A stretch of DNA of 64,000 nt, taken from Enterobacteria phage vB_EcoM_IME341. The notes below the pieces were generated by a model. That model was not told the DNA's origin. It saw nothing but the letters and a program-made list of their open reading frames with translations, and ran no database searches. This document shows positions 2,982-58,300 of this stretch, in pieces. Positions within the stretch are counted from its first letter, which is position 1; the number at the start of each line of letters is the position of its first letter. Location: the sequence record MH051917, one strand, 5' to 3'. A program made the translations under genes and the position numbers.

Positions 2982-3009
2982 TTTACATCTCCTCATGATG
3001 TGTTAGTAT
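2981..3009 (+). promoter_or_regulatory. Early (sigma70-type) promoter upstream of the Alc-sized ORF
   Basis: GTTTAC -35, 17-nt spacer, TAGTAT -10, followed by a CATGAGGAG leader. Confidence 0.5.
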
Positions 3010-3039
3010 AGACTTACCAACTAATGAGGAGAAAACAAA

Positions 3040-3540
3040 ATGAATATGCAAATGATTACTAACGAAATGGTTGTTAAGGCTTTTGGTGACTCTACTGACG
3101 GTATCCAAGTTTTTAAAGGTTCTCGTGCAGTAGGTTACCTGACCGATCTTCGTGTTACTTTAGCTAAAAATGCTAAAAAGAAAATCAAGCAAAAAGAATA
3201 CTCTACCCGTTATGCAGAAGAAAAGCGTGAAGCCATGCCTGAAGCTGTTAACTCTATGGTTGAGTTTCTCCAAAACAACCTTTCCAAGTACGATGCCGAG
3301 GTATTCATTAATATTAGCCAACCTAATGTTAAAATCTCAGGCATCACTTTCTATTTGATTTGTGACCCATTAAGCGACAAGTTTAATCGCCTTGGCATTT
3401 CAAGTCCTTACCATACCGCTGAAGAATTATGTTTTATGTTCGAAACGTACAAAATTCAGTGCGAAAATCCTAAAACGGTTCTTATTAATTCCCTGTCACG
3501 TGATGACATCATCGAGATTATTACCAAATGTCTAAATTAA
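3040..3540 (+). CDS. Hypothetical early protein; candidate Alc homologue by position and size only
   Basis: 166-aa ORF with GAGGAG Shine-Dalgarno immediately after rnlA; T4 has the 167-aa alc gene at this position. I cannot verify sequence similarity from memory. Confidence 0.5.
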   Translation: MNMQMITNEMVVKAFGDSTDGIQVFKGSRAVGYLTDLRVTLAKNAKKKIKQKEYSTRYAEEKREAMPEAVNSMVEFLQNNLSKYDAEVFINISQPNVKISGITFYLICDPLSDKFNRLGISSPYHTAEELCFMFETYKIQCENPKTVLINSLSRDDIIEIITKCLN

Positions 3541-4269: not shown

Positions 4270-4298
4270 TTTACAAACTCTTGGGAGCAGAGTATAAT
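4269..4298 (+). promoter_or_regulatory. Early promoter, canonical T4 type
   Basis: GTTTAC-N17-gTATAAT. Confidence 0.65.
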
Positions 4299-4333
4299 GC
4301 TCCTACGGATTATAAAAAATTGAGGAAATTATT

Positions 4334-4812
4334 ATGACTTTACGTGATAACAGTTTTGTGGCTAAGCCTGAATACATTTCAGGTGTTAAATCTCCTGCAT
4401 TACAAAAGCTCCTTAAGCTAGGGTCCTGTGCAAGTACACCACTTGAAAAGAAGGCAACTTTCGATTTTGCTTGGGCTATGGTAGACGGTATTGATGTAGT
4501 AAGACAGGTAACTTTTTATGCTCCAGGGTCTATTGAGCCTTCGCAGATTATTAATTTGGATGGAAGTAATTATATTACCATCCAACAATGGTATCGTATG
4601 ATGCGCCCGGTTTGGGAATACCCTGAATTCGTTGAAGAATATAATGAAAAAGAACGTATTCGTGAATTGGTGAAAAGTTTTGAATATGCGGCTAAACGCC
4701 ATGGTCAAATGCAATCCGCAGTAACCCTTGGCGATGTTCCTGAAAGTGTTGCTTACGAATCAGGTAAAACCCTTAAAACTTGCCGTGAAGAACTTTATAA
4801 GGAACTTGGCGT

Positions 4813-9741: not shown

Positions 9742-10004
9742 AATCGAGGAGCCGTCGAATTGTCTGATTATCGATTTACGAATCGGTATGTTTTAGAAGT
9801 ACCGCCCCGACAATTTTACGGTGTACCTCTTGAATGTATTTTGTACTATCACGCGTCAGAAAAAGGTTATCTGTCTAAGCCGTGGTTGGTATGATGACGA
9901 GGTTTATGGTTATCCTGTCGTTAAATATCCGAAACCTATGTTCCCCTTGAGGGCTTGCGCAGGCAACGCCAATAAGTCCTGCATTCTAATTTAAGAGATT
10001 TAAA

Positions 10005-10166
10005 ATGGCTAAGAAAGAAGTTAAAGTAGTTGACGGTACCTCTAAACGCGCTGGTTACAAGCGTGCGTCCAACAAGCGTATCGATCAGGTAGTTGATAAG
10101 CTTCAAGCTCGTGCTCGTGCGGTATTGCGTGCAGATGCTGCTTGCTTTGGTAAGCCTCAGGCATAA
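10005..10166 (+). CDS. Small basic protein (53 aa), not in the ORF track
   Basis: ATG with AAGAG Shine-Dalgarno; MAKKEVKVVDGTSKRAGYKRASNKRIDQVVDKLQARARAVLRADAACFGKPQA; followed directly by a terminator hairpin. Confidence 0.45.
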   Translation: MAKKEVKVVDGTSKRAGYKRASNKRIDQVVDKLQARARAVLRADAACFGKPQA

Positions 10167-10171
10167 GTTAT

Positions 10172-10199
10172 GGGACTCTTCGGAGTCCCATTTTTGTTT
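10172..10199 (+). terminator. Rho-independent terminator
   Basis: GGGACTC-TTCG-GAGTCCC hairpin followed by ATTTTTGTTT. Confidence 0.75.
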
Positions 10200-10216
10200 C
10201 TAAATCTTTAAAAAAG

Positions 10217-10292
10217 GGTGTACATCTCCGGTAGGCATGATACTATAGACCTGTACCAAATAATACGAAAACAAACTGGAGAATAAAATGAA
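10217..10292 (+). promoter_or_regulatory. Early promoter plus 49-nt leader, copy 1
   Basis: GTGTAC-N17-TACTAT, then a leader identical to the one at 10687-10735. Confidence 0.55.
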
Positions 10293-10656
10293 AATCAATC
10301 TTAACTCATATATCAAATGTAAAGACCACGACGGTTACAAAGCAATCGAAACTAAAGAAATGCAATGGCGCTTGTACAAAGAACAATTTGAATTTGTAGG
10401 TTGCATGACTCCGGAAGGTCCTTCTGATGACTTCTCTTGGAAAATTATGGTAACAAACTTTTTTACCGGTGATACCTACGAACTGAAAACTATCGTAATC
10501 GGTAAGATTCGTTGTAAGACCTATGAAGATGAAGAAACCGGTTATTCTGAAGATGTTACATGGTACCAAAACGGTCGCACCACTGCTGATGATTTGATTG
10601 AAAAAATGAAAGCCAAAGGTGAATTAAATTTAGATAATTGGATTAAAGTTGCATAA
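10288..10656 (+). CDS. Hypothetical protein (30.x-region)
   Basis: 122-aa ORF preceded by a 49-nt promoter/leader that is repeated exactly upstream of the next gene; GGAG Shine-Dalgarno. Confidence 0.6.
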   Translation: MKINLNSYIKCKDHDGYKAIETKEMQWRLYKEQFEFVGCMTPEGPSDDFSWKIMVTNFFTGDTYELKTIVIGKIRCKTYEDEETGYSEDVTWYQNGRTTADDLIEKMKAKGELNLDNWIKVA

Positions 10657-10670
10657 AACAGTTTACTTTG

Positions 10671-10735
10671 GTACAGGTTGTGTTATTATAGACCTGTACC
10701 AAATAATACGAAAACAAACTGGAGAATAAAATGAA
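10671..10735 (+). promoter_or_regulatory. Early promoter plus 49-nt leader, copy 2
   Basis: GTTTAC-N17-TATTAT, then a leader identical to the one at 10244-10292. Confidence 0.6.
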
Positions 10736-11096
10736 CTACAACAACTTCGAACGTAAATATGTTTCTAACGGTATCCCAGGTTCTTCTGAAGTTATTTGCC
10801 TGTGGAAACACAACAACGGCACGGTGTGCGAAATCGAACAGTGCATGACTCCTAACTACGTTTATATGCGCTTTGAAAATGGTATTACGGTTTCAATCAC
10901 AATGGAAGGTTCTACTTTTAAAATCGCTTTAGATGACGATTTCCGTCAACGTGATTTAGGTACCCATCCTTGCTGGAACGGTGTTAATCGTAAGCTTCTG
11001 GTTAAAACCTGGATTCGTCACATCCTGAGCAACCGAGCTAAACCTGAACACCTAGAAGCAATCTTTGATGTAGTTCTGAACGAATTCGATATCTAA
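10731..11096 (+). CDS. Hypothetical protein (30.x-region)
   Basis: 121-aa ORF behind the second copy of the 49-nt leader. Confidence 0.6.
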   Translation: MNYNNFERKYVSNGIPGSSEVICLWKHNNGTVCEIEQCMTPNYVYMRFENGITVSITMEGSTFKIALDDDFRQRDLGTHPCWNGVNRKLLVKTWIRHILSNRAKPEHLEAIFDVVLNEFDI

Positions 11097-11137
11097 TCTT
11101 AAAAATGGAGGCTTCGGCCTCCTTTGAGGAAAATATT

Positions 11138-14943: not shown

Positions 14944-17028
14944 ATGACCGAACAATTAAATGAAGTGTTTGAGTCCGAAGGCACACTGCCTACAGTAAAC
15001 TTGAACCCTAAACTTAAAGTACCACAGATTTGGAAGATTGGAGACGTAGAGTCTCAATTAGTGGCGCGTATTGTGTCCTACGCTTCTGAAGGCGATGCCA
15101 TTAAACAAGTTAAATTGGGTGACAAATATGCCCACGTTATCCTTATGAGCCTTTCGGCTAAAGGTTCTCCTGCTGAACTTAAAGGCGGCTTAGGCCCTAC
15201 TCCTATTGATGCCATTAATACCATTTTCGACGTAGTATTCGAACAAGTTAAAAAGCTTCGTATGGATGCCGTGATGTTCCGTTTCCCTACCAAGAAAATG
15301 AAAGGACAAGGCCCTATTGTCCAGAGAATTATCCAACGTTTAGTAACTCAAAAAACCGGCGGGCGTTTCAAAGTAGTTCCAGCTATGTACCAATTTACGG
15401 GCAAGCATACTTATATCTTAGTAGTTCGTAAACAAGCTGATATCGAAGATATCAAAGGTATGCCAGGAATTAATGCCGAATTATATACTAAGGTAGATTC
15501 TGATGTCGGTGAAGTTTATATTTCTAAAAAAGAAGGCGTGCAGGTTACTAAAGAAACTGCTATTGCCGGCAGTATTGCTAAAGTTGAAGAACGTCGCACT
15601 GATAAAATGGTTATAACTAAGACTAAGATTTCTCGTCGTGCCATTGCAGCAAGTCAATCGTTAGAATCTTATCGTAATGAAAGTGAACTGTTTAAGAAAT
15701 ATGAAGCAAATGCTGTAGATTTTAATAAACCGGCGACAGCTCCATTAATCCCTGAGGCCCAGGAAATGGTCACTAATAACAATTCTCCTGCGGCTAAAAA
15801 TAAGGTTGCTAATATAGTAGCTGAAGGTACTGCCGAAGAGTTGCATTATGATTATAAAATGTTTCCTCTTCACGGTATAGGTGAAATCCAAGAGAAAATT
15901 AAAGAGAAAATCCTGTCAGCCATCAAAAACGAACCTTTGACATCTGTTAAAGCTCTAGAAAAATACGCCTCTGTTATTAATACCGTTTTCGAAGAATACA
16001 AAGGCGAATGGTTGGCCCAGCATAACAAAACTCGTAAAGGCCAACCTGACGACCTCTGGAATGAATTGACCGAGTCCAAGTGGAAAGCAGCCAAGACCAA
16101 ATTCATTAAAAAACGCGTATATAGTTTTGCTGGTGTAGGTGGCGGTATTATGGTCGATATTACTATTGCTCGTGAGGGCTCTAAATATACCCCATCACAA
16201 AAGCGCGGCATCAGAGAATATTGCGGTTCAGGATATACAGATATCAATAATCTTCTTTTAGGACGCTATAATCCTCATAACTATGATGTAATGAACGAAA
16301 AATCTATTGAATCTGCAGTTAATAATTTGGATTCTGCTTTTGAAAATGGTGACCGTATACCGGAAGGCATTACAGTTTATCGTGCACAGAGTATGACTGC
16401 TCCTATATACGAAGCACTAGTTAAAAATAAAGTGTTCTATTTTAGAAATTTTGTATCTACTTCTTTAACTCCTATCATTTTTGGACGATTTGGTGTTACA
16501 CACGCCGGTATCGGTCTTTTAGAACCGGAAGTTCGCGATGAATTGACGGTCGATAAAAATGAAGAAGGAATAACTATTAACCCTAATGAAATAAGAGCGT
16601 ATAAAGAAAATCCTGATTACGTTAAAGTTCAAATAGGATGGGCGATTGACGGTGCTCATAAAGTTAATGTGGTATATCCAGGAAGTCTCGGAATAGCAAC
16701 TGAAGCTGAAGTCATTTTACCTCGTGGGTTAATGGTCAAAGTTAATAAAATAACAGATGCTTCTAATAATGACGGAACAACATCTAATAATACAAAACTC
16801 ATCCAAGCCGAAGTTATGACGACAGATGAGCTTCAAGAATCTGTGGTGTATGATGGTGACGTACTAATGGAAACCGGCGAGTTGGTCGTATATCAAGATG
16901 ATTTCGATACTTCCGAAAGCCCTGTATCTTTTGATTCATTTGTTAAATCTACACGGTTTGATGTACTGCCTCTTTTGGCTTCATGCATAGACCTCTATGA
17001 CATCCCAGAAAAATTCATCCAAGGGTAA
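14944..17028 (+). CDS. alt: Alt ADP-ribosyltransferase (head-packaged, modifies host RNA polymerase in T4)
   Basis: 694 aa; strong similarity to T4 Alt across the whole length, including ART-type motifs YRAQSM / FRNFVSTSL / EAEVILPRG and C-terminal ...YDGDVLMETGELV. Confidence 0.9.
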   Translation: MTEQLNEVFESEGTLPTVNLNPKLKVPQIWKIGDVESQLVARIVSYASEGDAIKQVKLGDKYAHVILMSLSAKGSPAELKGGLGPTPIDAINTIFDVVFEQVKKLRMDAVMFRFPTKKMKGQGPIVQRIIQRLVTQKTGGRFKVVPAMYQFTGKHTYILVVRKQADIEDIKGMPGINAELYTKVDSDVGEVYISKKEGVQVTKETAIAGSIAKVEERRTDKMVITKTKISRRAIAASQSLESYRNESELFKKYEANAVDFNKPATAPLIPEAQEMVTNNNSPAAKNKVANIVAEGTAEELHYDYKMFPLHGIGEIQEKIKEKILSAIKNEPLTSVKALEKYASVINTVFEEYKGEWLAQHNKTRKGQPDDLWNELTESKWKAAKTKFIKKRVYSFAGVGGGIMVDITIAREGSKYTPSQKRGIREYCGSGYTDINNLLLGRYNPHNYDVMNEKSIESAVNNLDSAFENGDRIPEGITVYRAQSMTAPIYEALVKNKVFYFRNFVSTSLTPIIFGRFGVTHAGIGLLEPEVRDELTVDKNEEGITINPNEIRAYKENPDYVKVQIGWAIDGAHKVNVVYPGSLGIATEAEVILPRGLMVKVNKITDASNNDGTTSNNTKLIQAEVMTTDELQESVVYDGDVLMETGELVVYQDDFDTSESPVSFDSFVKSTRFDVLPLLASCIDLYDIPEKFIQG

Positions 17029-17031
17029 ATA

Positions 17032-19155
17032 ATGGAAAATTTAAACGAGGTTTTTGATAGTGATTCCGCTAAAAACTATCCAGTAACAAATCTTAAACCG
17101 GGTTCCGGTATCCCACAGATTTTCTCTATCCATGCACCAGGTAATGATAACCTGGTGGCTCGTATGGTATCTTATGCGTCTCAAGGAGACGCTATTAAAA
17201 TGGTTAAGCCAGGCGACAAATACATTCATGTTATTCTAATGAGTTTGTCAAGCAAGGGTGCTCCGGCTGAACTTAAGGGTGGCCTTGGTTCTGACCCACT
17301 TGGTACACTGAATACCATTTTCGATACTGTATACGAACAAGTAAACAAACTTAAAATGGATGCAGTTTTATTCCGTTTCCCTACCAAGAAAATGAAAGGT
17401 AAGGGTCCTACTGTTCAGCGCGTATTGGCACGTTTGGCGATGGCTCGTACCGGTGGTAAGTTTAAAGTTGTTGACAACATGTTCCAATTCAGTGGAAAAC
17501 ATACCTACGTTCTTTTAGTACGTCGTGGTTCTAATATCGAAGATATCAAAGGCATGCCTGAAATTGATGCTGACCTTTATACCAAAGTCGATTCTAAAGT
17601 CGGCGAAGTGTATGTTTCTAAGAAAACCGGCCAGGCCGTAAGTAAGGTCGAAGCCGTAGCGGCATCTATTGCACAGGTTGAAGAGAAACGTACCGATAAG
17701 GCTGTCATTACTCGTACTAAGATTTCACGACGTATGGCCGCAGCCGCGCAGTATTCTACTGCTGAGCCTGAAACTTTGCCCCCTAAAGAATTGCAGGTTT
17801 ATAACGAATTTGAAGCTTCTGTACCGGTTCACACTGCCGAAGGCCCTGAGAACGAAGGTATTGAACAGATTAGTCAGAACTTTAAAAAAGGTGCTATTAC
17901 CAAAATGCGCCAGGCTTCTCAGTTTAAATCTAAGAGCGAGGACCTTGCCAACTTTAGATACACCATTGCTCTCACACATGCTTTAATGACTGATAGTAAA
18001 TTTAAACTAAATTATGCTAATAGAGATAAACAAGGGTTTGAAATTTACTCTAAAAATATGGCATTTTTTAATACAGAAGTCGATAGACTTTTAAGCGGCC
18101 TTTCGCAAATCAATACAACTAATAGTCTGGATATTATTAAGAGAATTGTTAATAACCTGAGTGCCCGTTTTAATGGTTCCCCTTCAGAGAAAGCATCTCG
18201 AATTGCTTTCGCTATGGAAGCCGTTTATAAACTGATTAACGATTCTATTGGTGATGCATATGCTTATTCAGGCGAACTCATTAAACCTAAGGACCTAACC
18301 AAAGACGAAAGCAATGCTATTATTGAATATTGCGCAGCTGAATATGCTCCTATGAACTTATTCCTTTTAGGTAAACCTGAATCCGAAAACAATACAACGG
18401 CTATTAGATTGATTAAGGATTTAGACTCGGCATTTACTAAGGGTATTAAACTTCCTAAGGGTACTATTTTGTATCGTGGTCAGGATTTGCCATACAAAAT
18501 TCTGCGTCATAATATCGATAACAAAACATTTTACTTTAAGAACTTTGTGTCCGCCTCACTAAAGCCTAACATCTTTGGTGAATTCGGTAAAAATTATATG
18601 GCCCTCGACAACCAAGCCGTTTTTGTTGGTGGTGAAGGTTCTTTATCCTCCGCTGATGAGTTGTTTAAATTGGCTAGTGGTAGTTCATCTGATGTGGGTG
18701 AAGTCGATGACGAAGAGGTAGAATGGGAAGAAGACGAGTTTGGTAATCCAATTGCCCCTGAAGGTCCTGCGGATAGAATTGCTGAAATAGGCATGGTTAT
18801 TCGAGGTGCTGAAGCAGTTAAAGTTATCGCTCCTGGTGACCTTACAGAATACGCTGAAGAAGCAGAAATCATCCTTCCGCGAGGATTATTGATGAAGGTT
18901 GATAAAGTAGCGGCTTTTGCTATGAATGATAGGGTATCTCACAAATATCTTATGGAAGCTACTGTGATGTCTCCTTCAGAGCTCAGTGAATCTGTTTACG
19001 ATGGTGACCATCTAATGGAAACCGGTGAAGTTCGTCCGATGGATGGCTTTAAACAGTTCTTGGTTAGTGAATCTGTTTCTGAAAGCAACGAGGCTATGGA
19101 AATCTTAGCAGCATCTTTGGATATCTCTTCTCTACCAAATAAATTCAAAATGTAG
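17032..19155 (+). CDS. Alt-like ADP-ribosyltransferase paralogue
   Basis: 707 aa; N-terminal 230 aa collinear with Alt (MENLNEVFDSD...MSLSSKGAPAELKGGLG...); retains R / S-x-S / E-x-E motifs (YRGQDL, FKNFVSASL, EAEIILPRG); diverged middle region plus an acidic insertion (DVGEVDDEEVEWEEDEF). Confidence 0.85.
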   Translation: MENLNEVFDSDSAKNYPVTNLKPGSGIPQIFSIHAPGNDNLVARMVSYASQGDAIKMVKPGDKYIHVILMSLSSKGAPAELKGGLGSDPLGTLNTIFDTVYEQVNKLKMDAVLFRFPTKKMKGKGPTVQRVLARLAMARTGGKFKVVDNMFQFSGKHTYVLLVRRGSNIEDIKGMPEIDADLYTKVDSKVGEVYVSKKTGQAVSKVEAVAASIAQVEEKRTDKAVITRTKISRRMAAAAQYSTAEPETLPPKELQVYNEFEASVPVHTAEGPENEGIEQISQNFKKGAITKMRQASQFKSKSEDLANFRYTIALTHALMTDSKFKLNYANRDKQGFEIYSKNMAFFNTEVDRLLSGLSQINTTNSLDIIKRIVNNLSARFNGSPSEKASRIAFAMEAVYKLINDSIGDAYAYSGELIKPKDLTKDESNAIIEYCAAEYAPMNLFLLGKPESENNTTAIRLIKDLDSAFTKGIKLPKGTILYRGQDLPYKILRHNIDNKTFYFKNFVSASLKPNIFGEFGKNYMALDNQAVFVGGEGSLSSADELFKLASGSSSDVGEVDDEEVEWEEDEFGNPIAPEGPADRIAEIGMVIRGAEAVKVIAPGDLTEYAEEAEIILPRGLLMKVDKVAAFAMNDRVSHKYLMEATVMSPSELSESVYDGDHLMETGEVRPMDGFKQFLVSESVSESNEAMEILAASLDISSLPNKFKM

Positions 19156-30660: not shown

Positions 30661-32079
30661 ATGGCTTATACCGTAGCTATTGCTCCTTTGGCGGCTACGG
30701 CCGTTATTGGAGCAACAACCAATTTCACTGCAACCGGCTCTGGCGCTGCAGCTGAAGGTGTTGAATCATTTGTATGGACTGTTGATGGCGTTCCACAATC
30801 TTCTGTGACTGCAGCAATGGCTTATGTCGCTGTTGGTCCGGCAGGCAGTAAGACTATTAAAGTTGTTGCAACCACCACTCCGGCAGACGGTGAACCGGAA
30901 ACTGCTGAGGCTGAGACAACTTTAACTGTCCAGAATAAACCAATGCCTGCTATTACATTGACTTTGGACCCTACTTCGGTTTCTAAAGAAGTTGGCCAAT
31001 CTCAAGTTGTTACTGCTAACGTGACGGGCGCGCCTGCCGGTGCAACAATTGCTTATGTTTGGAAACGTAACACTAGTGTAATCTCTGGACAAACTGGTAA
31101 AACTATTACCGTAACCGAAGCGGCAGCAGCAAATTACACTTTAAACTGTGAAGTCACCGTTACTGCACCTGATTATACTTCAGCTACCGCTACTAAAGGT
31201 GCTGCGGTAACTTTTGTTAAGAAAACTATATCAGGTGTTTCTGTTACTTTAACGCCCGCCTCAATTAGTACAGAGAAAGACTCACCTGCACAGTTTAAAG
31301 CGGATGTAGTCGGCGCCCCTTCCGGTGTAAATGCAACTTATTCTTGGAAGAAAAACGGTTCTATTATTCCAGGCGAAAGCAGTAATATTCTTGCTGTTGA
31401 TACGTCTACAATAGGTTCTTACTCTATTGAAGTTTCGGTAGTCCTAACAGGTACGGATTATAATGATTTAACTGTTACCAAAACAGGAAGTGTAACAATT
31501 ACTAAAAAGACTATGGCGGGTGTTTCCGTTAATTTAACGCCTGCTTCTATTACTGTCTCTGAAGGAACCCCAGCTTCTTTTAAAGCCACAGTAGCCGGTG
31601 CGCCTAGTGGTGCTACTTTTGCCTATTCTTGGAAGAAAGACGGTTCACCTGTTGTGGGTACTACAGATACATTAGTAATTGACACAAGCGCCGAAGGTTC
31701 ACAGGTTATTGAAGTTTCTGCTGTTGTTTCGGCGACCGATTATAATCCAGTGACAGTCAAAAAAACAGGTAATGTAACAATTACGGCTAAAGTAGCTCCT
31801 GAACCAGAGGGCGAACTACCTTACGTTCATCCGCTACCAGTTCGTAATTCAGCTTATATTTGGTGTGGTTGGTGGGTTATGGATGAAATCCAGAAAATGA
31901 CTCTTGAAGGCAAAGACTGGAAAACTGACGAACCTGATAGTGAATATTATCTCCATCGTTATACCCTTCAAAAAATGGTAGCCGATTATCCTGAGGTTGA
32001 TTTACAGGAATCTCGTAATGGTAGAATTATTCACAGAACCGCTTTGGATGCTGGAATTATTTACGATTACGTTTATTAA
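30661..32079 (+). CDS. hoc: Hoc, outer capsid decoration protein with tandem Ig-like domains
   Basis: 472 aa; T4 Hoc-like N-terminus and highly similar C-terminal capsid-binding region (AKVAPEPEGELPYVHPLP.R.SAYIWCGWWVMDEIQKMT.EGKDWKTD); about four Ig-like repeats versus three remembered for T4 (376 aa). Confidence 0.92.
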   Translation: MAYTVAIAPLAATAVIGATTNFTATGSGAAAEGVESFVWTVDGVPQSSVTAAMAYVAVGPAGSKTIKVVATTTPADGEPETAEAETTLTVQNKPMPAITLTLDPTSVSKEVGQSQVVTANVTGAPAGATIAYVWKRNTSVISGQTGKTITVTEAAAANYTLNCEVTVTAPDYTSATATKGAAVTFVKKTISGVSVTLTPASISTEKDSPAQFKADVVGAPSGVNATYSWKKNGSIIPGESSNILAVDTSTIGSYSIEVSVVLTGTDYNDLTVTKTGSVTITKKTMAGVSVNLTPASITVSEGTPASFKATVAGAPSGATFAYSWKKDGSPVVGTTDTLVIDTSAEGSQVIEVSAVVSATDYNPVTVKKTGNVTITAKVAPEPEGELPYVHPLPVRNSAYIWCGWWVMDEIQKMTLEGKDWKTDEPDSEYYLHRYTLQKMVADYPEVDLQESRNGRIIHRTALDAGIIYDYVY

Positions 32080-32083
32080 TAAA

Positions 32084-32108
32084 GGGCCTTGCGGCCCTTA
32101 TTTAGTTT
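32084..32108 (+). terminator. Rho-independent terminator after hoc
   Basis: GGGCC-TTGC-GGCCC hairpin followed by TTATTTAGTTT; the same hairpin sequence recurs at 58281. Confidence 0.7.
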
Positions 32109-34235: not shown

Positions 34236-35517
34236 AGTTTTTATCCAATGGAGGAAGTTTAACACCAAGATAAGAACTCAATTGACTTTGATTAGCCATT
34301 TTGTCCATATCCGCACCGTCAATAATACGAGCTTCTTTGTCGTCTTTAGCGACGGTATAAGGATTCGCAGTCAATGCATACCGAGCCAATAAAGATATGG
34401 TAGGTTGCAATGAATCTGGGTCTACAATAACCTTGAATTCACCTACTGAAGTATCACCTTCATCATCAACTTCTTCGAGCCCTTCCGTATAAGGCGCATA
34501 ATACAAAGATGCGACCGTCTGCCCTTCACCCATCTGAGCATTTACACCGACAATAACATAATCACACGGACTATTCATATCAGCATAAAGTGGTAGACCG
34601 TTCTTTAATATGCCATAAGCTAATTCGTCTTGGTCTTCTTTTTTCTCAACCCAACCGGATGCAGCTAAAATAGCGGCGCAACGAGAAGAAGCTACTGCAT
34701 AAGTACCTGCAAACGAAGTCTGGCGTTGAACAGCAGAATTCATTTCACACATATAGTAATACAAGGTACGCGCTCGGTCTTGGGCGTTATCATATTGTGG
34801 GTCTGTTAAGTTCAAGACGCCTTTCTCGGAAACTCCTTGGACTTTAAAACGAGAACTTACCGTAATTAAGGACTGTAATACGTCTTTATTAATTTCTTCG
34901 GCCATTTGAATAGCCAAAATATTGTCTATAAAGTCTGGTGCATTAAACCCGTTGGATTCTAAATCCTGGGCCAGTTCTACAGTCAAAGAAGTTTTAAGTT
35001 TACGCGATTTAACTTCAGTCTGCCACTTATCAATACGGAATCCTGCTTCAGCAATCTCAGGATGGCCTTTTTCAAATTTATTGGTAAAGGCTGCATCAGA
35101 CATCATACGAATATGGCCTGCTGCAATAGCTTCTGAAATAACTTCACCCAAATCGGTTTCAGTTGTTCCTGCAAACGGAGAAGCTTCTAATACCTTGAAA
35201 ACCACACTTTCGAATTGGAACATATCACCAACAGCATATGCTTCGTCTTTATCGGTGAATTCAGGAATGTTTTTACGTTCGAACATACCAATTTCGCCTG
35301 CAAAAGTGGCTCCGCCGAGATAAGTCATTTTATCGTCTGGGTTTAAAACACGGACACCATATAATGCTGCAACAGGTTGAGTAGTTTTTTGTTCAGCAAC
35401 AAGGGCTTTAAAAATTCTTTTATTAGTTGCCTGGGTATATGAAAGAAGATTAGGACGGGCGACCTGGTTGGCCGCCGTCAAAGTTGATTCTTGTATTAAT
35501 GCATTAATCTTTTTCAT
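34234..35517 (-). CDS. Capsid vertex protein paralogue (gp24-like, second copy)
   Basis: 427 aa; roughly 50% identical by eye to the adjacent gp24 (e.g. ...RPNL...AT.K.I....AEQ.T.QP.AALYGV..L.PD...); starts one codon after the gp24 stop (TAAATG). Confidence 0.85.
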   Translation of the reverse strand: MKKINALIQESTLTAANQVARPNLLSYTQATNKRIFKALVAEQKTTQPVAALYGVRVLNPDDKMTYLGGATFAGEIGMFERKNIPEFTDKDEAYAVGDMFQFESVVFKVLEASPFAGTTETDLGEVISEAIAAGHIRMMSDAAFTNKFEKGHPEIAEAGFRIDKWQTEVKSRKLKTSLTVELAQDLESNGFNAPDFIDNILAIQMAEEINKDVLQSLITVSSRFKVQGVSEKGVLNLTDPQYDNAQDRARTLYYYMCEMNSAVQRQTSFAGTYAVASSRCAAILAASGWVEKKEDQDELAYGILKNGLPLYADMNSPCDYVIVGVNAQMGEGQTVASLYYAPYTEGLEEVDDEGDTSVGEFKVIVDPDSLQPTISLLARYALTANPYTVAKDDKEARIIDGADMDKMANQSQLSSYLGVKLPPLDKN

Positions 35518-36798
35518 TTATGCCTCGTAAATAATTGGAGGAAGTTTAACACCAAGCAGATAAGACATATTACTCTGCCCTGCCATTAAATCCATATTAG
35601 TTGCGTCTATAACACGAGCTTCTTTATCATCTTTAGCAACGGTATACGGGTTTGCTGAAAGTGCATAACGAACCATCAGAGAAATAGCCGGTTGCAAACT
35701 ATCAGGGTCTACAATAACTTTATAGGCACCAACATGTTCTTGGTCGTCTAAATCCAGACCTTCGGTATACGGAGCATAGAAAATAGAACCAACTACTTCA
35801 TTACCGCCGTAATCTTCTTTAACGCCTACGATAACATAATCTAAAGGACTATTAACATCACAGAATACAGGCAATCCATTAATCAAATAACCGTAAGCAG
35901 TTTCTGGGAGCCAAGCTTCATCTTCTGGTTTATGTTTCAACCAACCTGAACCTGCAAGCATTGCGGCTACACGACTAGATGCGACAACAAACGTACCTGA
36001 ATAAGAAGTGGTTTTCTGAATTTCAGAATTCATCTCACAAACCATTTCATATAATTTACGTGCACTTTCTGGAGCGGAATTATAGGACAAATCAATAATA
36101 CCGTTATCAGATACACCAGTTACTTTGTAACGTTTAGATACGGTAATCAAGGATTGTAATACGTCTTTATTGATTTCATCAGCCATTACAGTGGCTAAAA
36201 GGTCTTCTAAGAACGCAGGGGCGTCGAAGCCATTAGATTCCATGTCTTGGGCTAGTTCTACAGTCAAAGCGGTTTTAAGCTTACGGGACTTAACAGGGGC
36301 GTTCCATTTATTAACCTGGAATACTGCATTGCTAATTTCAACATCACCTGCTTCGAATTTTTCTGTGTGGGCCGCATCAGGAACAAGACGACAAGTTAAT
36401 GACACCAAACCTTCTTGAAGGGCATCAGCCAATTCTGTAGCGCTAGTGGATGCGAGTGGGCTTGCTTGAAGAGCCTTATAAACCACATTCTGATACTTGA
36501 AATATTCACCCTCGGCAATCGCCTGGGCCTTATCTGTGAGTTCCGGGATAGTTTCACGGTCTTTAGAACCAACTTCACCGCCATAAACGGCACCAGTTTG
36601 GAAGCTGAATTCATTATCAGGGGTAAGATATTTGACACCATACAATGCAGCAATAGGCTGGCTAGTACGTTGTTCAGCAATAATATCACGGTAAATCAAT
36701 TTGGTTGTAGCACGGGTCAAAGCAACAAGATTAGGGCGACCCAATGAGTTGCTAGAAGTAGTTGTTGACTCGCGCAGTAATTCGTTAATCTTTGCCAT
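35518..36798 (-). CDS. 24: Capsid vertex protein gp24
   Basis: 426 aa; near-identical to T4 gp24 (MAKINELLRESTTT.SNS.GRPNLVALTRATTKLIY.DI.A.QRT.QP...); late promoter TATAAATA about 29 nt upstream. Confidence 0.95.
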   Translation of the reverse strand: MAKINELLRESTTTSSNSLGRPNLVALTRATTKLIYRDIIAEQRTSQPIAALYGVKYLTPDNEFSFQTGAVYGGEVGSKDRETIPELTDKAQAIAEGEYFKYQNVVYKALQASPLASTSATELADALQEGLVSLTCRLVPDAAHTEKFEAGDVEISNAVFQVNKWNAPVKSRKLKTALTVELAQDMESNGFDAPAFLEDLLATVMADEINKDVLQSLITVSKRYKVTGVSDNGIIDLSYNSAPESARKLYEMVCEMNSEIQKTTSYSGTFVVASSRVAAMLAGSGWLKHKPEDEAWLPETAYGYLINGLPVFCDVNSPLDYVIVGVKEDYGGNEVVGSIFYAPYTEGLDLDDQEHVGAYKVIVDPDSLQPAISLMVRYALSANPYTVAKDDKEARVIDATNMDLMAGQSNMSYLLGVKLPPIIYEA

Positions 36799-50960: not shown

Positions 50961-53358
50961 ATGGTGCTGAGTTTAAAGTCACAAAATCTGACAATAGAAC
51001 CCATGCATTATCAACCAGAACATACGGAAGTCCATCAGCTGCAGGAGCAACAGGAGGGCGTTTAGCCAACTCAGTTTCTAGTGCAGTGATTTTACCTTCA
51101 GCCGCAGTTAAACGGGTTCCTAAATCAGCAACTTTATCAGATTCAACTTTAACCGCCGCTAAACCTGTTTCAAGAGTACCAACTTTACCTTCTACCGTAC
51201 CTAAACGGGTATTGATTCCTGCAACTTTATCGGATTCAACTTTAACTGCTGCCAACCCGGTTTCAAGAGTACTAACTTCACCTTCAACAACGCCTAAACG
51301 GGTATTGATTCCAGCCACTTTACCAGATTCAACTTCAACAACACCTAAACGGGTATCGATCCCTGCAACTTTATCGGATTCAACTTTAACATCGTCCAAA
51401 CCGGTTTCTAAGGTGGTAATTTTACCTTCAGCTGTACCTAAACGGGTATTAATTCCTGCAACTTTATCAGATTCAACTTTAACAGCAGCTAAACCTGTTT
51501 CTAAGGTGACAATTTTACCTTCAGCAGTAGTGACTCTGGTGGTTAAAGGAGCTATTTTAGCGGTGTCCAATTTAATATCGGTAATTTCACCTTCATTAGC
51601 AGCTACTCGTCCGGTTAAAGTAACGATATCGCCTTTGTTCTTAGTTATATCAGCTTTAATAGGAGTTAATTGTGATTCTATAGAACTCACATCTAAGGCC
51701 AAAGCAGTAACATCAGAATCAGTGGTATCGGTTTTAGATTCAAGTGCCGTTATTTTTCCGTTAACGGTAACATCACTTTCTTCTAAAGCTGTGATACGAC
51801 TATCTTGCTCGGTGTCTTTAGATTTTAACAAAACGATATCGGCTTTAATTTCTCCTACTGAAGTGTTTAAAGCTCCGGTACGTGTATCAAGAGAAGAAAT
51901 TGAAGTGTCATTGGAATCGACTCTTGCCGTTAAAGCTGATACTTTACCGTCTGTAACCAATAAAGAAGCTTTGACTGCATCAATTTCTGCGGTGCCGTCA
52001 AGGATTTCCTCCCATGCAGCATCTTTACGTCCGTACAATTTACCGTCAGCAGGAGCTTCACCCAATTTAGTAGGCATTTGGGCTTCAAGGCCTTTAACAG
52101 AGTTTATTAACCCTCGTTCTTCTACAGTACTACCGTTAGGGTTGGTTCCTTCAATCTGGTTGGTAATTTTAAGAATAGAACCCTTAATACCGGTTTGGTT
52201 ATTACCAATCTCTGCCTGCAGGTCCTGAATAGTAGAGGCTGAAGTATTACCTTGAGTTGTAAGGTCATTCAAACGTTTATTAATTGTTCCTGCAGCCGGA
52301 CTTACATCGGCACCAATTTTACGGTCAATATCAGAAACCTGGAAACGAAGCCCTTCAGACGAACTATCACCAACTATATTTTTTAGCTCATTAACATCAG
52401 TACGTAAGCCACCTAATCTACCGTTAATAGAAGTAGGGGTATCCGCAGTACCGATAGTGGTCTCTACCGCAGTAACTCTAGGAACCAAACCATTATTAAC
52501 TGTGTTTTCCAAAGTGGAAGTTTTAGTTTCTAGTGTGGTTACTCTTGTATCAATAGAGCCTTTATCAAAACCTATACTGGTCTTGATGGAATCTATTGAT
52601 TCATTAAAGCTTTCAGCAGCAGTTTCAAGAGCAGAAATCCTGGTATACGCTGGTTGTTTACCTACGGTATCAATATGAGGACCTAGTTCTTCGCGAATTT
52701 CGTTAAGCTTAAGACCAAGTTGCCCTACATCAGAATCTTCGTAATTCTTTTCAAGGGTATCTATACGTTGTGAATGGTCGACAATAGCACTGGTATTATC
52801 CATAATGCGACGTTTCATGCCGGTGGCTTCAGAAGTTTCACCTGGAGGAAGCGGCTGGCTGTTTATGTCCTGGTTTGCATAGTGGCCAATTTCAGATTTG
52901 AGAAGATTTATATTTTCTCTGACGGTGAGATATGGGCCATCTAAAGACGGGTCATAATAACCTACATCTTCTTCTAAAAAATTAAAATTAACGGTTAAGT
53001 CACCTAATTCTTGTTTAGTTTCGGAAGCCTTTTCATCCACAGCCAGTATATCGACACGGTTCTTTTCAATTTGCTGAATAACCGCCGTATCAGTAGAAAT
53101 ATCTAGGGCTTCATTAATCAAATTAACGTTATCCACAAGCTCGTTAATTTTGTCTTTAGAAGCTATACTGTTTTCTTCTAATCTAACTACGTTGGTTTGT
53201 ACTCCTAAAGCAGGGGCGTTCAAATTACCGTCGTGACCGTATTTAGTCGTGGCTCCTTCAATACATTCTCCATTGCGTATCCAACGGATACGCTCTTGGG
53301 ATGCATCAGGTACACCATCGACAAACGGAAGTTCTTTAATACTCAGTTTGTCAATCAT
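50959..53358 (-). CDS. wac: Fibritin (whisker / neck fibre, Wac), extended form
   Basis: From the internal Met MIDKLSIKELPFVDGVPDASQERIRWIRNGECIEGATTKYG... (T4 Wac: MTDIVLNDLPFVDGPPAEGQSRISWIKNGEEILGADTQYG); about 799 aa versus 487 in T4; heptad coiled-coil segments; C-terminal foldon-like ...DGLPYVLVDNAWVLLSDFV. Confidence 0.9.
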   Translation of the reverse strand: MIDKLSIKELPFVDGVPDASQERIRWIRNGECIEGATTKYGHDGNLNAPALGVQTNVVRLEENSIASKDKINELVDNVNLINEALDISTDTAVIQQIEKNRVDILAVDEKASETKQELGDLTVNFNFLEEDVGYYDPSLDGPYLTVRENINLLKSEIGHYANQDINSQPLPPGETSEATGMKRRIMDNTSAIVDHSQRIDTLEKNYEDSDVGQLGLKLNEIREELGPHIDTVGKQPAYTRISALETAAESFNESIDSIKTSIGFDKGSIDTRVTTLETKTSTLENTVNNGLVPRVTAVETTIGTADTPTSINGRLGGLRTDVNELKNIVGDSSSEGLRFQVSDIDRKIGADVSPAAGTINKRLNDLTTQGNTSASTIQDLQAEIGNNQTGIKGSILKITNQIEGTNPNGSTVEERGLINSVKGLEAQMPTKLGEAPADGKLYGRKDAAWEEILDGTAEIDAVKASLLVTDGKVSALTARVDSNDTSISSLDTRTGALNTSVGEIKADIVLLKSKDTEQDSRITALEESDVTVNGKITALESKTDTTDSDVTALALDVSSIESQLTPIKADITKNKGDIVTLTGRVAANEGEITDIKLDTAKIAPLTTRVTTAEGKIVTLETGLAAVKVESDKVAGINTRLGTAEGKITTLETGLDDVKVESDKVAGIDTRLGVVEVESGKVAGINTRLGVVEGEVSTLETGLAAVKVESDKVAGINTRLGTVEGKVGTLETGLAAVKVESDKVADLGTRLTAAEGKITALETELAKRPPVAPAADGLPYVLVDNAWVLLSDFVTLNSAP
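51057..51560. repeat. Tandem in-frame DNA repeats (about 75-150 bp units) inside the wac 3' region
   Basis: Repeated units such as ...CAACTTTATC(A/G)GATTCAACTTTAAC...CCTAAACGGGTATTGATTCC... visible on the plus strand; encode repeated (K)VESDKVAGINTRLG..EGK..TLETGLAAV peptide units. Confidence 0.85.
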
Positions 53359-58271: not shown

Positions 58272-58280
58272 CCCCCGAAA

Positions 58281-58300
58281 GGGCCTTGCGGCCCTTTTTA
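58281..58300. other. GC hairpin between gene 8 and gene 9
   Basis: GGGCC-TTGC-GGCCC (identical to the hoc terminator stem) with a T-run on the plus-strand side. Confidence 0.55.

Follow-up and report, generated by a model that had tools for sequence, protein, structure and literature searches.

A perfect 49-bp repeat before genes 30.8 and 30.7 of Enterobacteria phage vB_EcoM_IME341 as the probable common part of two PeSL-type early cassettes

The intergenic composite cassettes called PeSLs (promoter-early stem-loops), which combine an AT-rich region, a sigma70-like early promoter, a stem-loop, a Shine-Dalgarno (SD) sequence and an ATG, have been described in the phage pairs RB49/phi1, PST/T4 and nt-1/KVP40 (Arbiol et al. 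2010, PMC2839356; Comeau et al. 2014, PMC4122927). They flank small open reading frames (ORFs) in hyperplastic regions, where recombination between neighbouring copies deletes, inserts or replaces an ORF; the stem-loop, which can also be upstream of the promoter or over the -35, lies mostly between the boxes or over the -10, and crossovers have been mapped from the -10 to the ATG (PMC2839356, PMC4122927). In this study, we analysed a perfect 49-bp repeat in a 64,000-nucleotide stretch of DNA from Enterobacteria phage vB_EcoM_IME341 (sequence record MH051917), hereafter the window. With a probability that we put at about 0.8, this repeat is the 3' part common to two PeSL-type early regulatory cassettes, one before gene 30.8 (cassette 1) and one before gene 30.7 (cassette 2), for which we propose an origin, a function and a consequence for recombination.

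Like the described PeSLs, the pair belongs to a hyperplastic region and occupies intergenic DNA among small early ORFs that are non-essential; the stop codon of the preceding gene is in AT-rich DNA directly ahead of the -35. Each unit has a putative sigma70-like early promoter (TTTACW..N17..TAYWAT) and carries an SD and a start codon at its 3' end, and a stable stem-loop is found upstream of the promoter in cassette 1 and over the -10 in cassette 2, both being described subclasses. The T4 orthologues of the two genes are of the early class for RNA and protein (PMC9697503 supplement). In close relatives the flanked ORF has been deleted or replaced and chimeric cassettes have been left (the Bp7 allele, SQ17/L017, JM10 and L040/L039). 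In contrast to PeSLs, the window sequence is present in two copies at one locus, and its identity is concentrated in the leader rather than in the promoter and AT-rich part; unlike the PeSLs of RB49, the window stem is not of the G(n)/C(n) type. Since the sequence-level and comparative features of the kind are present, we file the pair with the PeSLs. These putative cassettes fit that kind at a locus and in genera that are new to it, and they are no new kind of system. Both PeSL papers lack the 30.8/30.7 locus and any Dhakavirus or Mosigvirus example, and 30.7 and 30.8 are absent from the main text of the PeSL papers and of two T4 transcription papers.

Three other known arrangements are related to this locus. 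In the T4 genes e, soc, 49 and I-TevI, promoter-embedded hairpins make translation depend on where the transcript starts (PMC3014915). As in those genes, the promoter of cassette 2 lies inside an inverted repeat, so that the hairpin would be present in read-through RNA and not in promoter-initiated RNA; unlike in those genes, the window hairpin leaves the SD free, and the promoters are early whereas the classical cases are late. The 30.7 hairpins of the L026/L027/L033 type and the promoter at window position 2982 do involve the SD, and resemble the arrangement in T4 e, soc and 49. Strong RegB/S1 sites follow the consensus GG*AGRAYARAA, in which GGAG is necessary, not sufficient, for RegB cleavage (PMC3014915). 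Like the RegB/S1 targets in T4 early mRNAs, the candidate site GGAGAATAAAA doubles as the SD of an early gene, in RNA predicted to be without structure. As with morons and integron gene cassettes, the unit that is gained, lost or exchanged is one small accessory gene plus the signals for its expression. However, there is no integrase or attC-like site here, and exchange would proceed via the homology of the regulatory cassettes, a distinction from morons that the PeSL authors also draw (PMC2839356, PMC4122927).

The repeat and the anatomy of the two cassettes

The 49-mer TATAGACCTGTACCAAATAATACGAAAACAAACTGGAGAATAAAATGAA occurs in exactly two places, 10244-10292 and 10687-10735, both on the + strand and with 0 mismatches, and no additional copies at up to 3 mismatches are present in the 64-kb window. 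Dinucleotide-preserving shuffles contained a match in 0/100 cases, and the chance expectation is 0. An independent repeat search widened the pair to 55 nt (family D12; 10238-10292 and 10681-10735), with 96% identity and a distance of 443 bp. The ORFs that start inside the copies are gene 30.8 (10288-10656, + strand, 122 amino acids; PF06019, E=1.4e-44) and gene 30.7 (10731-11096, + strand, 121 amino acids; PF06919, E=6.8e-51). Each copy thus comprises the end of the -10, the leader, the SD and ATGAA of the gene that follows, with the initial transcribed region and the A-rich leader making up the interior of copy 1. The 5' edge lies inside the -10 hexamers, TACTAT at 10241-10246 and TATTAT at 10684-10689, which have the last three bases in common, and the identity between the window copies falls sharply at this point. 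The 3' edge is the ATG plus two bases, the second codons being AAA (Lys) in 30.8 and AAC (Asn) in 30.7. An earlier note on this DNA had reported an exact 49-bp duplication, which held on exact matching and recount, and had described it as running from the promoter -10 through the SD into the first two codons; the SD and ATG are indeed covered, but only three bases of the -10 are included and the second codons differ.

Cassette 1 follows the stop codon of gene 30.9, a terminator and an A-tract. Its stem-loop is the terminator-like hairpin ATGGGACTCTTCGGAGTCCCAT plus T-run 3' of 30.9 (10170-10197, + strand), for which the terminator scan gave 9 pairs (5 GC), a loop of 4 and the tail TTTTGTTTCT, with the hairpin itself at 10170-10191, upstream of the AT-rich tract. 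This tract, TTCTAAATCTTTAAAAAAGG, was read from the sequence at 10198-10217 (+ strand), 5' of the -35; AT-rich or UP-like regions belong to T4 early promoters and to PeSLs (PMC2988021, PMC2839356). The putative early promoter P(30.8), read at 10218-10246 on the + strand, consists of the -35 GTGTAC (10218-10223), a 17-nt spacer and the -10 TACTAT. Framed as TGTACA/16/TACTAT it agrees with the E. coli consensus at 8/12 positions, below the threshold of a generic promoter scan, and its -10 fits the T4/PST PeSL consensus TAYWAT (PMC4122927). In cassette 2 the 30.8 stop codon TAA (10654-10656) stands 4 nt before the -35 of the putative early promoter P(30.7) (10661-10689, + strand), which has GTTTAC at 10661-10666, TG at 10681-10682 and TATTAT as the -10. 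The promoter scan matched it as TTTACT/16/TATTAT with TG, and it is conserved in T4, VR7 and distant genera. The two promoters differ in both their -10 and their -35 elements.

The downstream halves of the cassettes are alike. Both copies end in GGAGAATAAAATGAA, an SD that matches the published strong RegB/S1 cleavage consensus, with GGAG at 10278-10281 and 10721-10724 and ATG at 10288 and 10731. In a pattern search GGAGAATAAAA, at 10278-10288 and 10721-10731 (+ strand), fitted 11/11 positions of GG*AGRAYARAA, and no other match was present in the 64-kb window. The promoter-initiated leaders would fold with -1 to -2 kcal/mol around the start codon, which is weaker than shuffles, so that at both copies the candidate site, of the form GGAGRAYARAA, lies in a predicted unstructured initiation region of an early mRNA. 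No Rfam family was found in the region at E up to 1. A structured regulatory RNA in the leader was rejected, as there is no Rfam match and the leader is less structured than its shuffles.

We infer promoter function, co-regulation and RegB targeting of both genes from the sequence together with published T4 biology. Transcripts from either promoter would have the same unstructured A-rich 5' untranslated region and the same SD GGAGAATAAAA with its predicted RegB/S1 site, and both genes would therefore have equally high translation initiation and a rapid early shut-off; the common leader would be a compact module for predicted strong expression and rapid shut-off. The identical expression signals that the earlier note had proposed are accordingly confined to the transcribed leader and the translation signals. 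As the -35, spacer and -10 differ and the strong -10 hairpin is present only at copy 2, the signals are the same after the transcription start and not in promoter strength.

This hairpin, the stem-loop of cassette 2, is a 12-bp perfect inverted repeat (repeat family I9; 10667-10703, + strand) with the arms TTTGGTACAGGT (10667-10678) and ACCTGTACCAAA (10692-10703), 100% complementary, and the -10 in its loop; the 3' arm falls within repeat copy 2. Its RNA fold has -19.3 kcal/mol with z -5.16, and 0/200 shuffles were as stable, while no significant hairpin was found at P(30.8) (z -0.47) or in the hybrid cassette of SQ17 (z 0.0). In the lineages examined, the 30.7 promoters have an inverted repeat centred on the -10 (z -2.3 to -6.4), with equivalents in six other lineages, and at least seven T4-like lineages keep the hairpin there, its arms differing in sequence between them (GGTGAGGGTCTG/TAGACTCTCACC, TTGGTGTAGGAGTA/TACTCTTACACCAA and GCTGATTGAGTGTG/TACACTCAATCAGC). 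Cassette-1-type promoters lack it, as do the deletion products SQ17 and L040, and its presence is therefore limited to promoters that come immediately after an ORF, with no separate terminator in between. An attenuator or 3'-end element of a compact PeSL would fit this pattern. The cassette 2 hairpin would form only in read-through RNA from 30.8 and would substitute for the separate terminator that precedes cassette 1, although it has no following U-run and intrinsic termination is uncertain. In the window, T4 and VR7 alike, about 17 nt separate the end of the hairpin from the SD downstream of it, which is not sequestered; in genera of the L026/L027/L033 type the 30.7 stem pairs a CUCC in the promoter spacer with the GGAG of the SD.

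Early promoters with a similar architecture are found elsewhere in the window, at 2982, 4270, 6712, 19156 and 36842; some have -10 hairpins, and the leader is not shared. At 2982-3045 an early-type promoter, gtagTTTAC...TAGTAT, lies within an 18-nt, 78%-complementary inverted repeat (2988-3005 and 3015-3032), the 3' arm of which is the SD ATGAGGAGA; read-through RNA would sequester this SD and promoter-initiated RNA would not. At 4270-4340 the -10 of another such promoter, gtagTTTAC...TATAAT, is bracketed by GGGAGC and GCTCC(T) arms. Hairpins around the -10 seem to be common among the early promoters of this phage.

Origin of the common leader and recombination at the cassettes

A 2.5-kb query around the repeat matched 784 phage records, the best being the Dhakavirus phages ABTNLsp5, Bp7, MX01, IME08 and JS98 at 93-96% identity. 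The 55-mer was found in 44 records, in at most two places each and always at this locus, and all of these except JM10 (a Mosigvirus) are of the Dhakavirus type. A dispersed mobile element was considered and rejected, as the 55-mer is confined to this locus and the window has no degenerate copies beyond chance.

In T4 and in the Gaprivervirus VR7, 30.8 and 30.7 have separate early promoters and leaders, and the common part is GGAGAATAAA(A)ATGAA, about 15-18 nt. Since T4 and VR7 share just this short part, the longer identity is derived. Their 30.7 promoter-leader, which includes the inverted repeat GGTACAGG/CCTGTACC, resembles cassette 2 of the window, and their 30.8 promoter-leader differs. 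The suggestion of the earlier note that the repeat arose by promoter-leader capture or duplication is borne out by this comparison. The Mosigvirus-like metagenomic contig L017 has a 30.8 promoter that resembles its 30.7 promoter from the -35 onward (11/17 spacer positions), and its two leaders differ at about ten positions. From these patterns an old duplication of the complete 30.7 cassette before 30.8 is inferred, followed by divergence and then by re-homogenisation of the transcribed part in the Dhakavirus lineage.

Position 10251 (+ strand; variant table) is the site at which a C makes copy 1 identical to copy 2. The equivalent base of copy 1 is A in 12/15 Dhakavirus loci, T in ESCO10 and C in the window and LHE83. 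The C is the copy 2 base, and this A>C change is the sole difference between the window and ABTNLsp5 across 9881-10334 (454 nt); one random substitution in 454 nt would hit 10251 with that base about 1 time in 1400. In LHE83 the copy 1 leader equals the copy 2 consensus, whereas the phage that matches it best downstream of the cassettes, WG01 (99.6%), departs from it at two sites of that leader. These observations point to a non-reciprocal exchange between the copies that may be continuing.

The sequence of events that we propose is as follows. The 30.7 promoter-leader would have been duplicated before 30.8 in an ancestor of Dhakavirus and Mosigvirus, replacing the native 30.8 promoter that T4 and VR7 have kept. 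The promoter halves would then have diverged, and gene conversion, an ectopic and non-reciprocal form of recombination, would have re-homogenised the transcribed halves, the latest step being a short conversion patch that turned A into C at 10251 and gave the perfect 49-mer. The resulting cassettes flank the dispensable early gene 30.8 in the variable region from rIII to gene 30, and each is built from the stop codon of the preceding gene, a stem-loop, AT-rich DNA, a putative early promoter of the sigma70 type, the leader with its SD, and an ATG. They would act as preferred crossover sites, bounding the 30.8 allele swaps, the precise 443-bp deletions that leave a hybrid cassette, and the junctions between genera.

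It is comparative genomics that shows the role of the cassettes in recombination, at the level of aligned genomes. The region varies between relatives by allele swaps, extra ORFs and deletions. Dhakaviruses carry two 30.8 alleles, of 122 amino acids and of 110 amino acids (T4-like; Bp7, MX01, JS98 and others), which are homologous with 37% amino acid identity (E=1e-21). Between the window and Bp7 the flanks are about 98-99% identical and divergence is limited to 10295-10660, from just past the ATGAAAA of copy 1 to the -35 of P(30.7). A synthetic fusion lacking 30.8 found a single-piece match in JM10, SQ17, PTE-Eco05 and AV109/114/115/116; JM10 and SQ17, the sole two of these matches that were retrieved, are both Mosigviruses. 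SQ17, 92-96% identical to L017, corresponds to it with 443 bp removed, the two alignment blocks having a 91-nt overlap at the cassette. In the single cassette of SQ17 the promoter is that of L017 cassette 1 (one mismatch) and the leader that of L017 cassette 2, the switch falling within TGTACCA; the two start codons of L017 have the same 443-bp distance as those of the window. The earlier note had regarded the repeat as a substrate for recombination that would delete the enclosed gene and had suggested comparing the 443-bp interval in related phages; the interval is absent from SQ17 relative to L017, and a hybrid cassette is left in its place. In JM10 the sequence changes from Mosigvirus-like to Dhakavirus-like inside the cassette, where identity to the window goes from 76% to 87%. 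A more distant case, from another genus, is L040, which corresponds to L039 with about 925 bp removed (30.8 and a 170-amino-acid ORF) and has an 83-nt overlap at the cassettes.

Several further variants of the region were seen. In phage C6 (L045; MW679410) the DNA separating the 30.9 terminator from the 30.8 cassette contains, at 1204-1560, an extra proline-rich ORF of 118 amino acids with its own terminator, which neither the window nor any other Dhakavirus examined possesses. Insertion of this ORF via a third cassette was rejected, as ORF219 stands between the 30.9 terminator and cassette 1 without a cassette of its own. Further downstream, two tandem 30.4-like ORFs are present in L008 (dhaeg; 2441-2878) and L011 (WG01; 2436-2870), and L010 (QL01; 2248-2544) has an extra 98-amino-acid ORF between 30.6 and 30.5. 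In the more distant T4-like genera of L026, L027, L028, L033, L034, L037 and L041 (about 70 nt upstream of position 1501), the 30.8 and 30.7 cassettes are alike and follow another, lineage-specific consensus, CCGTTTACATCC...GTGTTATAGTATAAACTCAATAA...ACGGAGAATAAAATGAA. Before the 30.7 homologue of L035 (about 70 nt upstream of position 1501) stands a cassette of chimeric appearance, its promoter half being of the 30.7 type and its leader half of the 30.8 type, and no 30.8 homologue was found within 1.5 kb upstream. L035 may be another recombinant, of a polarity opposite to that of a simple deletion.

The locus is a clean, well-bounded natural case of T4-like phages shuffling small accessory early genes, in which the expression cassette of a gene would also supply the homology for its swap, deletion and conversion. 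Three matched states of it are available: both cassettes around allele A, both around allele B, and a single hybrid cassette left after deletion of the gene. Because of these states, and of the 443-bp unit found in both the window and L017, the PeSL model is directly testable at this locus. Gene 30.8 is dispensable in some Mosigviruses and kept in all sampled Dhakaviruses. Engineered inserts flanked by such cassettes may be unstable.

Competing explanations

The repeat might be held identical purely by purifying selection on a common regulatory function, with no ectopic recombination and with the junctions incidental. The element GGAGAATAAA(A)ATGAA is kept before both genes even in T4, VR7 and distant genera, the 3' block matches a functional consensus, and the invariance of copy 2 in 11/15 Dhakavirus loci is in keeping with selection. 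However, the 30 nt from the -10 to the SD vary freely across genera (T4, VR7, L017, L025-L043) while being identical within Dhakavirus genomes, so these 30 nt are not under universal constraint. Moreover, identity drops abruptly at the -10, the one base in 454 nt at which the window departs from its nearest relative makes the copies identical again, and hybrid cassettes exist; we therefore regard selection alone as unlikely. A different possibility is that the cassette is the target of dedicated recombination or homing, for instance by a structure- or site-specific nuclease at the -10 hairpin, and that 30.8 is actively mobile. The junctions lie within a few nt of TATAGACYTGTACCA, a strong hairpin is found at copy 2 in every lineage, and such an activity was raised by the PeSL authors, who detected mini-circles in RB49/phi1 (PMC2839356). 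Yet no nuclease or recombinase gene adjoins the locus, the cassette sequence is limited to one locus, and cassette 1 recombines without having a hairpin. T4 general recombination, besides, can make do with patches of about 50 bp or less (work cited in PMC2839356), and a dedicated activity seems to us decidedly improbable. We hold only slightly better odds for a more specific version, in which the -10 hairpin and the conserved TATAGACYTGTACC block would be recognised by a phage structure- or site-specific activity and 30.8 would be excised as a 443-bp promoter-plus-gene circle and re-inserted; if that were so, small early genes would form an integron-like pool of mobile cassettes exchanged among Dhakavirus, Mosigvirus and Tequatrovirus.

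If 30.8 and 30.7 were strongly diverged paralogues, the repeat could be the edge of a larger tandem gene duplication in which the leader was best kept. The near-equal lengths (122 and 121 amino acids) and a weak BLASTP match (E=0.042 over 28 amino acids, with CMTP at the same position in both) speak for this. On the other hand, the CMTP motif is not conserved within the 30.7 family, the two proteins belong to separate Pfam (PF06019, PF06919) and PHROG families, an hhalign comparison of profiles of 29 and 18 homologues gave a probability of 0.4%, and the AlphaFold models (pLDDT 93 and 87) differ in the order of their secondary structures. Each Pfam family occurs once per genome in about 1000 phage records, and T4 and VR7 have both genes without the common leader. 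Paralogy was rejected on the BLASTP, Pfam/PHROG, hhalign and secondary-structure results; as the earlier note had supposed, the two proteins are unrelated as far as the methods used can tell, and the repeat is therefore not the edge of a gene duplication, an origin to which we attach very little weight. Still less credit is due to a chance match or an assembly artefact, which is excluded by the shuffles and by the presence of both copies in more than 40 independently sequenced genomes.

Several observations nevertheless weigh against the PeSL-type cassettes and the recombination history that we favour. The allele swap could be explained by ordinary double crossovers anywhere in the conserved flanks, the cassettes being just the conserved DNA closest to the gene, so a special role of the cassettes in it is not proven. 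No 30.8 deletion was found in Dhakavirus, where all of the 40+ listed records match the fusion in at least two pieces; the repeat notwithstanding, all of these phages have retained 30.8, so that deletion in this genus is infrequent or else counter-selected. Like the 64-kb window, the 44 records have at most two copies per genome, compared with the many PeSLs of RB49/phi1, and it is therefore the architecture, rather than the number of copies, that underlies the notion of a cassette family here. As for 10251, conversion was argued post hoc from one site, where a point mutation may have had the same result. Finally, RNAalifold on a MAFFT alignment of 12 lineages gave no consensus pairs, the hairpins being centred on the -10 but not in the same register and hence not column-homologous. 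In L025 and L029, the sole in-register pair, direct reading found 4/12 pairs changed on both sides. As there is no column-wise covariation, the claim of a conserved hairpin depends on the per-lineage z-scores and on the L025/L029 reading.

Neighbouring genes and other repeats of the window

By comparison with annotated relatives and T4, the window derives from a T4-like, Dhakavirus-type phage with the gene order gp31, rIII, 30.9, 30.8, 30.7, 30.6 ... 30. The upstream neighbour of the cassettes is a 30.9 homologue of 53 amino acids (10005-10166, + strand; ORF list), which belongs to phrog_1427 and is annotated as 30.9 in Bp7, IME08 and VR7. Downstream, the terminator scan found a GC-rich terminator-like hairpin, GGAGGCTTCGGCCTCC, 3' of 30.7 at 11107-11122, and T4 30.7 has an equivalent hairpin at its 3' side. 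A Foldseek search against the PDB returned no significant match for the 30.8 or 30.7 protein (best E 0.28 and 0.22, TM <0.3). The deposited product names at the locus of ESCO10 (L009; OM386655) look misassigned, with the rIII homologue called thymidine kinase, gp31 called endoribonuclease and 30.8 called ABC transporter ATP-binding protein.

Other repeats of the window are of different kinds. Three collinear repeat families at 15061-15639 and 17155-17733 (2094-bp spacing, 70-81% identity) look like two tandem paralogous genes, and repeat families about 1284 bp apart at 34249-35402 and 35536-36683 (73-80% identity) are probably adjacent paralogues. Two families about 283 bp apart, at 31294-31502 and 31579-31784 (70-72% identity), suggest tandem domain repeats in one gene, and five head-to-tail copies of a unit of about 93 nt at 51091-51619, with 64-76% identity to the reference copy, probably represent a repeated protein domain. 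GC-rich terminator-like hairpins of the form AAAGGGCCTTGCGGCCCTT(A/T)TT lie 26 kb apart at 32081-32102 and 58278-58299 and are 95% identical, and a third copy of the AAAGGGCCTTGCGGCCCTT type is found at 1398-1419 (77%).

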